Below, piece after piece: positions 45,593 to 46,351 of a DNA stretch of 64,000 bases. The translations under genes were made by a program, and so were the position numbers. Position 1 is the stretch's first letter. Each line of letters begins with the position of its first letter. Source of the DNA: a virus; the IMG/VR virus record IMGVR_UViG_3300027859_000890, positions 70,167 to 134,166 of that record, one strand, 5' to 3'. The notes under the pieces are model-generated. The model saw only the letters and a list, made by a program, of their open reading frames with translations. It made no database searches and was not told the origin of the DNA.

Positions 45593-45817
45593 ATGCATCC
45601 TCTTATTGACGATTTAGATGAGTTTACAGATTCGCAGCTTCAAGAAAAAGTTGTAACACTAAAGAAAAGATATTTTTCAACTATGAATCCTGATGTGCAG
45701 TCACAAATAACTTTGTTAATAGATACATATCAATGGGAACTTGAAAAACGTGATAGAGACAAGAAAAAAAGTCAAAAACCAGATAATGATCTTGACAATT
45801 TAATCAATGTATCGTAA
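45593..45817 (+). CDS. hypothetical protein
   Basis: Intact ORF (MHPL..DL...L). Confidence 0.65.
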   Translation: MHPLIDDLDEFTDSQLQEKVVTLKKRYFSTMNPDVQSQITLLIDTYQWELEKRDRDKKKSQKPDNDLDNLINVS

Positions 45818-45820
45818 TAT
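45792..45820 (+). promoter_or_regulatory. sigma70-type promoter giving a leaderless mRNA
   Basis: TTGACA(45792), 17-nt spacer, TAATAT(45815-45820); ATG at 45827. Confidence 0.6.
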
Positions 45821-45826
45821 ACATAT

Positions 45827-46351
45827 ATGCTTATGAAAACAGATGATTTAGGTATTCCTCGATTTACTAATCGCGATTTAGTCGATATGATTTATAGCGG
45901 CCACGCTGATAAGTGTCACGTTGTGCTATGTGATGAATCAGATGATATAGATAAGTTTAATATTGCAATGGAAGAACAAGGTTTGAATAAACTGCAAAAA
46001 TATATTCCATTAGATGTAGATCAAAAAACTTTTGACGGTGTATGTCAAGGTGAATGGTTTATGCCAGATGAATATAAAAATATGGACATTGCAGGATACT
46101 TACAAAATAAATGTGATACAAAAGAAGAGCTTACACGTTATTTTGAAGAATATGCAGAATACAACAAAAGAGGTATGCTGCCACTGTTAAGATATATGTG
46201 TTATCTAGTAGACTTTATGCGTGGAAATGACATTGTATGGGGTGTAGGACGTGGATCAAGTGTTGCAAGTTATATTTTATACTTGATTGGCGTACACAGA
46301 ATTGATAGTATTGCATACAATTTAGACTGGCGTGAATTTTTGCGTGACTAA
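45827..46351 (+). CDS. DNA polymerase III alpha (DnaE) fragment
   Basis: R..EE...YLVD.MR...VWGVGRGSSVAS..LYLIGVHRID...L...EFL; stops before the PDxDxD motif. Confidence 0.8.
   Translation: MLMKTDDLGIPRFTNRDLVDMIYSGHADKCHVVLCDESDDIDKFNIAMEEQGLNKLQKYIPLDVDQKTFDGVCQGEWFMPDEYKNMDIAGYLQNKCDTKEELTRYFEEYAEYNKRGMLPLLRYMCYLVDFMRGNDIVWGVGRGSSVASYILYLIGVHRIDSIAYNLDWREFLRD

Follow-up and report, generated by a model that had tools for sequence, protein, structure and literature searches.

In giant bacteriophages, a split and minimal form of the alpha subunit of DNA polymerase III (Pol III alpha) was described by Iyer, Anantharaman, Krishnan, Burroughs and Aravind (2021, Viruses 13:63, PMC7824862), who assigned to their group 2.2 jumbo phages an NTP-binding N-terminal protein of ~170 amino acids (aa) and a C-terminal protein binding Mg2+ and template, encoded by distant genes. 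According to the same source, this phage-specific minimal Pol III alpha occurs beside a family B polymerase, typically with an RFC-type clamp loader, while the full-length DnaE of group 3.2 and Bacillus phages is a single, host-like enzyme with a PHP domain that acts as main replicase. Here we analysed a 64,000-nucleotide (nt) stretch of viral DNA (the window), which forms the last 64 kb (positions 70,167 to 134,166) of the linear, 134,166-bp virus record IMGVR_UViG_3300027859_000890, and within it a 174-aa open reading frame (ORF) at window positions 45827-46351 (+). With a probability of roughly 75%, this ORF is the N-terminal, nucleotide-binding subunit (N-half) of a split, two-gene minimal C-family (Pol III alpha-like) enzyme, an assignment based on Pfam and PHROG matches, selection and predicted fold. 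The split system itself has been known from sequence since 2021, and the window is one more, incomplete example of it.

The ORF has an ATG startcodon and a TAA stopcodon (46349-46351), and contains both the GRGSS motif string and the terminal WREFLRD that an earlier inspection of the bare DNA (the sequence-only reading) had pointed out; the C-terminal end reads ...GVGRGSSVASYILYLIGVHRIDSIAYNLDWREFLRD, or in fuller form ...WGVGRGSSVASYILYLIGVHRIDSIAYNLDWREFLRD, followed by the stop. It matches the Pfam family PF07733 (DNA_pol3_alpha) with an E-value of 7.2e-8 (32.8 bits, cut-off 23.9), with residues 102-172 covering profile positions 24-94 of 260 and leaving the catalytic part of the model unmatched. 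Positions 98-170 of a profile built from 54 family members align with residues 320-392 of E. coli DnaE (E 4e-5), which puts the end of the protein a few residues before the DnaE catalytic strand, just as the sequence-only reading had it, and a phmmer search aligned residues 127-172 with Thermus DnaE 409-454. The catalytic aspartate triad (D401, D403 and D555 in E. coli DnaE) is not on the 174-aa polypeptide, as the ORF stops before the DxD strand. The stopcodon is followed by a 24-nt spacer with two extra in-frame stops and an AGGAG ribosome binding site, and a separate gene begins directly past it at position 46376; there is no continuing or intein-like sequence, as had been noticed earlier, nor any intein match in Pfam. 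Pfam scans of the 184 ORFs of at least 70 aa on the record (5 + 107 + 72) did not match a PHP or other DnaE domain in the ORF or in the other 183. The glycine-serine loop of a Pol-beta-like nucleotidyltransferase fold is predicted, from its invariance and the DnaE alignment, at W138-G-V-G-R-G-S-S145 (46238-46261, +), aligning with ...GPGRGSGAGS... of E. coli DnaE, and residues G139, G141, R142, G143, S144 and S148 are invariant in all 54 aligned members.

Similar genes are numerous, and those compared break off at the same point. The ORF matches the phrog_11127 family (a 171-position profile) end to end, with residues 7-173 aligned to positions 11-171 (E 9.8e-42). In a collection of 5.8 billion proteins, 8,000 candidates with lengths of 95-305 aa were scored and 7,995 of them match at E <= 0.001, giving at least 7,995 clusters of similar length, and the best 120 homologues are 171-176 aa long and 75-99% identical. 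After clustering at 50% identity, the number of matching clusters is 1,034 at E <= 1e-3 and 736 at E <= 1e-10; lengths among the best 150 are 74-222 aa, and the G.GRGS loop is kept in 137 of their representatives. Every one of these 137 ends 35-45 residues past the loop, and none continues into a DxDxD sequence, hence a full-length dnaE was not found at this place in the relatives. The gene ends with EF[LM]R(D) and a stop in 81/81 cases (the window plus 80 related viral loci), and EFL[RK] or an equivalent closes all 54 aligned members. The ratio of non-synonymous to synonymous substitution rates (dN/dS) is 0.046 against the closest relative (dS 0.21), and has a median of 0.093 and a maximum of 0.167 for the 53 of 80 pairs with a finite, unsaturated dS; the ORF is thus under strong purifying selection and does not evolve neutrally. 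Taken as sequences, these genes mark the ORF as a member of a family, and not as a truncation.

If the ORF were a truncated pseudogene, or a full-length phage dnaE cut short by an error of assembly, this would explain why it ends just short of the catalytic motif, and full-length DnaE genes do exist in other phages, for example in Bacillus phages. This explanation is refuted by the identical end point in 81/81 close genes and 137/137 motif-bearing representatives and by the dN/dS values of 0.05-0.17, and we give it next to no weight. Near-identical DNA, with at least half of the sampled words, is moreover present in 17 marine metagenome runs, spanning 9 studies other than the possible source, and the record is not a self-repeat: it was considered as a concatemer with two 748-aa ORFs 84,216 bp apart, but at that offset the sequences are 27% identical, the level expected by chance.

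Among cultured phages, tblastn gave N-half matches in 114 records, including PA5oct-like, RaK2/121Q-like, Atu_ph07, XacN1 and similar giant phages, a number that also includes weak matches to the full-length DnaE of Bacillus, Staphylococcus and Clostridium phages. The best cultured-phage match to the N-half of the window has 46% identity over 79% of the protein, and relatives carry the GenBank and JGI annotation 'DNA polymerase III alpha'. A fusion of N-half and C-terminal partner was not found among seven longer matching proteins, in what was a weak search; four of the seven join the N-half to a histidine kinase, a ribonucleotide reductase, a peptidase or an antiporter, and these may be chimeric calls.

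The sequence-only reading had suggested a natively split, minimal C-family polymerase with its other half elsewhere, to be sought as an ORF starting near PD.D.D, and in relatives of the window's phage this is what is found. The C-terminal partner (C-half) is a separate, distant gene for a protein of ~190 aa, phrog_11778, which like phrog_11127 is labelled 'DNA polymerase' in PHROG. It has 191 aa in Atu_ph07 (beginning MKNIPDIDIDF), 212 aa in 121Q (beginning ...TDIDIDF) and 190 aa in the marine relative G001 (beginning MPDIDIDF; phrog_11778 E 9e-58), and is also present in MIJ3. G001 is a 267,783-bp marine record, 75% complete, with an N-half that is 76% identical to the one in the window, and its C-half was located with a profile built from the 121Q and Atu_ph07 C-halves. 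At least 7,956 of 8,000 scored candidates are C-half homologues. An X[PT]DIDIDF start is present in 60 of 79 C-half ORFs from viral contigs (in the remaining 19, the start had been chosen too far upstream in 3, and the others have short leaders), and 98 of 120 close homologues start with Met-Pro directly on the DxD strand. Residues D3, D5, D7, K63, D65, R132, P133, K135, F161, K162 and H165 are invariant in 41/41 C-halves. A profile of these 41 sequences reaches M. tuberculosis DnaE1 at E 2e-5, with positions 1-12 mapping to MPDIDIDFDDRR (DnaE1 413-424), positions 52-138 to DnaE1 565-664, comprising the K-M-D-F-L-G third-aspartate strand and the R-P-G finger motif, and positions 160-175 to DnaE1 773-788 (F-N-K-S-H-A). 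At the level of single sequences the C-half escapes detection, with E-values of 0.02-0.05 in Pfam and 0.083 in NCBIfam and no phmmer match in the PDB. In MIJ3, Atu_ph07 and 121Q the sole PF07733 match is the small N-half gene; a repurposed fragment in cultured relatives, considered for lack of a second DnaE piece in Pfam, was rejected once weak PF17657 finger-domain matches in these phages (E 0.007-0.008) proved to be the C-half genes.

The two halves mostly occur together. There are 96 cultured-phage records with a C-half against the 114 with an N-half match, and the tallies of N- and C-halves are equal for Escherichia (34/34), Pseudomonas (11/11), Erwinia (8/8), Salmonella (8/8), Xanthomonas (4/4), Yersinia (4/4) and Agrobacterium (2/2) phages, and unequal for Klebsiella phages (10 N-halves, 11 C-halves). 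Of the five large uncultured viral records with a C-half, four also have the N-half, including both of those that are at least 90% complete. The halves are ~160-300 kb apart in four large uncultured relatives and ~15-44 kb apart in RaK2-like, PA5oct-like and XacN1 phages, and the C-half adjoins primase or helicase genes in PA5oct, Slickus01 and SCTP-2. Alishewanella phage Slickus01 (OQ508957.1, 141,644 bp) encodes its C-half at 68,442-68,924 and its N-half at 79,802-79,996; as this genome is smaller than the 200-kb jumbo limit, the split enzyme also occurs outside jumbo genomes. In G001, 121Q and Atu_ph07 a ~120-aa phrog_11637 protein without assigned function is encoded beside the C-half on the opposite strand, with the motif ...FPFL...YVGII...WW.E.NR.IP (copies at L102:409-777 (+) in G001, L013:1742-2095 (-) and L012:996-1361 (+)), and at the corresponding place in PA5oct, Slickus01 and SCTP-2 there are small ORFs, likewise on the opposite strand.

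In cyanobacteria, dnaE likewise consists of two distant genes (DnaE-n and DnaE-c), the products of which are joined by a split intein. Post-translational joining of the phage halves by the same route would fit their location in two distant genes, but is contradicted by the gene lengths: the N-half ends 35-45 residues past GRGS, leaving no room for an extra segment of ~100 aa, and the C-half has no leader and begins with its DxD strand, in the proportions given above. As no intein domain was found by Pfam either, we consider this route excluded for practical purposes. As neither half carries an intein at its end, their association has to be non-covalent.

Structure prediction gave a similar picture for each half. 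The AlphaFold2 (AF2) model of the N-half has a predicted local distance difference test (pLDDT) score of 92.1, and in a search against 48,161 representative chains its top seven matches are all C-family polymerases (Z 6.7-10.9), with the next at Z 3.2. Residues 70-174 (46034-46348, +) correspond by structural alignment to the first subdomain of the DnaE palm, matching M. tuberculosis DnaE1 303-414 (Z 10.9, root-mean-square deviation (rmsd) 2.3 A over 97 residues) and E. coli DnaE 279-394 (Z 9.3; both by VIA-align); Foldseek E-values are weak (0.04-0.24), yet its top eight matches are all DnaE. Residues 1-69 (45827-46033, +) are predicted to form a family-specific N-terminal alpha/beta domain (pLDDT 85-96) without a matching known fold: neither fold search returned a structural match, both tools warning that this region was barely tested, and look-ups in the protein atlas gave no lead for residues 1-72. 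The G001 C-half model (pLDDT 91.7) aligns over residues 1-187 with Thermus DnaE 461-841 (Z 9.4, rmsd 3.5 A, 185 residues) and E. coli DnaE 399-784 (Z 8.5), the top 14 entries all being DnaE or PolC and the next having Z 3.1; just 178-187 of its residues are aligned across ~385 residues of DnaE. In these models the break point falls between E. coli DnaE residues ~394 and 399, and the two halves together cover the palm and a core of the fingers, the pair as modelled being without a PHP domain, a thumb, outer fingers, or clamp-binding and OB domains.

We also predicted the two parts as a complex, combining the N-half of the window with the C-half of G001, each with its own alignment. The ipSAE score was 0.92 in 3/3 runs, compared with 0.00 for the best of three controls; at least 98% of contacts are shared between the runs, and the pLDDT of the partners is at least 91. 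In the model, the W138/G139 loop contacts the C-half in its DxD strand (residues 6-8), and N-half residues 3-33 also contact the C-half. In the favoured reading, the N-half would supply the first palm subdomain, with its invariant W-G-x-G-R-G-S loop, together with the 69-residue N-terminal domain. The G-x-G-R-G-S loop in DnaE holds the triphosphate of the incoming nucleotide. The C-half would contribute the catalytic Asp-x-Asp strand at its very start, the third catalytic aspartate (K-x-D-F-L) and a pared-down fingers core with R-P-x-K and F-K-K-x-H motifs, so that a single Pol-beta-like active site would be rebuilt across the interface. The halves would bind each other in vivo, and their activity would be templated DNA synthesis. 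Lacking a PHP domain, a thumb and outer fingers as well as clamp-binding and OB parts, the enzyme would most likely be a short-patch, non-proofreading polymerase, and there is perhaps an even chance that the heterodimer acts in this way beside a T4-like family B replisome. It may then serve as an accessory to that replisome in repair, gap filling or synthesis of one strand, as Iyer et al. (2021) proposed.

Several results count against an assembled, active enzyme of this kind in the window's phage. The C-half was not found on the 134-kb record in a genome search with two queries, nor in a local tblastn (best E 0.43) or with a hidden Markov model of three sequences run over six frames (best E 1.3), and there is no second PF07733 match on the record, nor a DNA polymerase of any family, including family B, among its 184 scanned ORFs. 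In relatives, one 79%-complete record has a C-half without an N-half, and of the five largest N-half records one has a C-half match, the other four being 23-50% complete. The mark used for ipSAE scores is reached by 116/157 solved complexes and 2/215 mismatched pairs, counts that hold roughly for our model, both alignments of which were self-made, and passing the mark may reflect likeness remembered by the prediction model, since single-chain DnaE structures have been solved. Efficient templated synthesis is uncertain for an enzyme without thumb and clamp-binding parts, and in the literature searched we found annotations alone, and neither polymerase activity nor a physical association of the halves. 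Finally, RNA evidence for the ORF is thin: two 151-nt contigs from one marine metatranscriptome (X20) fall on it, which is no proof of transcription, as such libraries can carry DNA, while contigs of run X19 fall on flanking genes only and run X24 has nothing on the locus.

The absence of the C-half from the record is likely due to the incompleteness of the latter. The sequence points to an uncultured, marine, T4-like giant phage as its source, and Pfam matches on it include gp9/10-type baseplate proteins, a gp44-type clamp loader, ribonucleotide reductase, ThyX, PhoH and many auxiliary genes, but its estimated completeness is ~37%, too little for the record alone to decide on the existence of a complementary half. 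A family B polymerase is present in 3/3 cultured phages (MIJ3, Atu_ph07 and 121Q) and in 2/2 marine relatives checked. In G001 the C-half is ~212 kb from the N-half, far beyond the end of the window's record, and a ClpB-like gene is located downstream of the N-half at 14 kb, compared with 13 kb here (70% identity); by this collinearity the record would end ~5 kb before the position of the G001 family B polymerase gene. The ribonucleotide reductase of the record was not found in G001, thus the collinearity is anchored on the downstream side only. The window's phage presumably carries the C-half in its unsequenced part.

The 174-aa protein could alternatively function alone, as a repurposed, non-catalytic fragment acting, for example, as a regulator, or as a decoy for parts of the host or phage replisome, in a phage that has no C-half, a possibility that the sequence-only reading had raised. 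The lack of a C-half on 134 kb of sequence and of the catalytic aspartate strand on the ORF would both fit such a fragment. Against it stand the low completeness of the record and the location of the G001 C-half past its end, as well as the co-occurrence of both halves across cultured and complete uncultured relatives, and a mere decoy would have no need of an invariant nucleotide-binding loop. We consider a stand-alone fragment quite improbable, and favour the split, two-gene enzyme.

The downstream neighbour of the ORF (46376-46816, +) encodes a 146-aa protein of phrog_14844 (E 7.8e-16, function unknown) with a conserved N-terminal domain of 60 residues and a charged tail, for which protein-atlas look-ups gave no lead. 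It had been taken for an unrelated gene, which does not hold, as it is a conserved neighbour at the same place in MIJ3, Atu_ph07 and 121Q. It is followed by genes for a GroES/T4 gp31-like co-chaperonin (46816-47193, +; PF00166 E 6.5e-5, phrog_931 and phrog_3188) and, further downstream, the large subunit of an RFC/T4 gp44-type clamp loader (49137-50069, +; PF00004, PF13177 and Gp44_lid), both of which served as synteny markers. The order of N-half, small protein, GroES-like gene and clamp loader is kept in MIJ3, Atu_ph07 and 121Q, with PhoH next in that order in MIJ3 and Atu_ph07. The clamp loader that the sequence-only reading recognised is thus real, but its co-occurrence with a C-family polymerase gene, which had been called unusual, is not so for this group of phages. 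A stand-alone, Rv2179c-like 3′-5′ exonuclease (47953-48477, +; PF16473 E 3e-34) is encoded between N-half and clamp loader, with MazG-like genes on either side (47381-47734 and 48880-49158).

An ORF of at least 80 aa follows the N-half in 76 of 80 marine loci, and two database proteins, P0393 (383 aa) and P0394 (400 aa), are in-frame fusions of the N-half with the phrog_14844 neighbour, which may be a functional partner of the N-half. Readthrough of the stopcodon, or an ancestral fusion with the next ORF, was suggested by the frame shared by both genes in the window, MIJ3, Atu_ph07 and 121Q, and was rejected, as 39, 19 and 18 of the 80 marine loci have the following ORF in frames 0, 1 and 2, respectively (4 being without such an ORF), and 36 of the 39 frame-0 spacers contain at least two stops.

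The same neighbourhood allows for a different role of the assembled halves, namely that of a specialised nucleotidyltransferase for untemplated tailing, primer-like synthesis or production of a nucleotide signal or modification, in which the adjacent 146-aa protein might be a third subunit. The missing thumb, outer fingers, clamp-binding and OB parts would suit such an enzyme, as would the presence of a full family B polymerase in these phages, judged from the relatives, the synteny of the neighbour in 3/3 cultured lineages, the ORF following the N-half in most marine loci, and the two fusion proteins. Conversely, the DnaE fingers motifs are invariant in all 41 C-halves, which fits DnaE-like handling of substrates, the C-half lies beside primase or helicase genes in three phages, and the N-half is near a clamp loader, and we therefore regard a nucleotidyltransferase of this kind as rather unlikely. 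Similarly doubtful, in our view, is a version in which the halves would be the core of a larger, clamp-independent nucleotidyltransferase with phrog_14844 as third subunit, and would serve not bulk replication but, for example, synthesis that is untemplated or tolerates damage, or a step in DNA modification; if true, it would make the 2021 reading as a 'minimal replicase' incomplete.

The ORF had also been credited with a promoter of its own. A σ70-like, promoter-like site (TTGACA-17 nt-TAATAT, matching 10/12 positions in a consensus scan) is located at 45792-45820 (+), and an equivalent TTGACA-N16-18-TAnnnT sequence is present within 60 nt upstream of the N-half in 74 of 80 related viral loci; promoter-like sites are, however, not enriched in the region, with 14 found compared to 12.0 ± 3.2 in shuffled sequences.

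Several other genes of the record were noted as well. Cytochrome c oxidase subunits II and I and a CtaG/Cox11 assembly factor are encoded at record positions 33,989-36,892 (L003:14159-17059; Pfam E 1e-45 to 9e-159), and a series of eight genes that encode radical-SAM domains, SPASM domains or both, in one case together with a B12-binding domain (window 3148-4611 and 11068-19120, +), looks like a large modification or biosynthesis cluster. The set of host-like genes is unusually rich (record 47,420-64,186; window 433-1050 and 57578-61122), and comprises translation and proteostasis genes (ribosomal protein S21, IF-1, ClpS, ClpP, a ClpA/B-type ATPase, DnaJ, peptide deformylase and Hsp20), the curli genes CsgF and CsgG with a curlin-repeat protein, and a CHASE2-adenylate/guanylate cyclase. 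Two giant ORFs, of 2,185 aa with a T4 gp9/10 N-terminal domain (window 28693-35250, +) and of 1,526 aa with a He_PIG Ig-like domain (window 40391-44971, +), probably both encode baseplate or fibre proteins.

With ~364 residues in two chains, the split enzyme would, if confirmed, be by far the smallest C-family polymerase, and could show how small the catalytic core of the bacterial replicase fold can be. The N-half family is also very abundant in the sea, as judged from its number of clusters. PF07733 was reported by Weinheimer and Aylward (2022) to be the single marker gene of the largest group of marine jumbo phages. The bacterial replicase fold may have begun as a multi-subunit enzyme, as is suggested in PMC7824862, and the split phage enzyme could bear on such an origin.

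Compared with described systems, the locus is closest to that of Iyer et al. (2021), with which it shares the ~170-aa N-half in phrog_11127, the partner family phrog_11778 in relatives of the window's phage, the RFC-type clamp loader on the record and a gene order as in PA5oct-like phages, Atu_ph07 and 121Q. It differs in that the cultured phages are replaced here by an uncultured marine phage, and that the C-half is not on the record. With bacterial DnaE (E. coli 2HNH/5FKU, M. tuberculosis 5LEW and Thermus 3E0D) the predicted protein has the palm fold and the G-x-G-R-G-S loop in common, but it is 174 aa long instead of ~1,160-1,220 aa, has no PHP domain and carries an extra N-terminal domain of 69 residues, with the catalytic aspartates of the phage enzyme being on another polypeptide. 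In contrast to cyanobacterial DnaE, the phage halves have no intein, are broken just before the catalytic DxD strand and cannot be spliced. The full-length DnaE of group 3.2 and Bacillus phages shows weak homology to residues 83-172 (32-38% identity, E 1e-4 to 2e-5), whereas the enzyme predicted from the window would be a minimal one in two parts, with an accessory role beside a family B polymerase.

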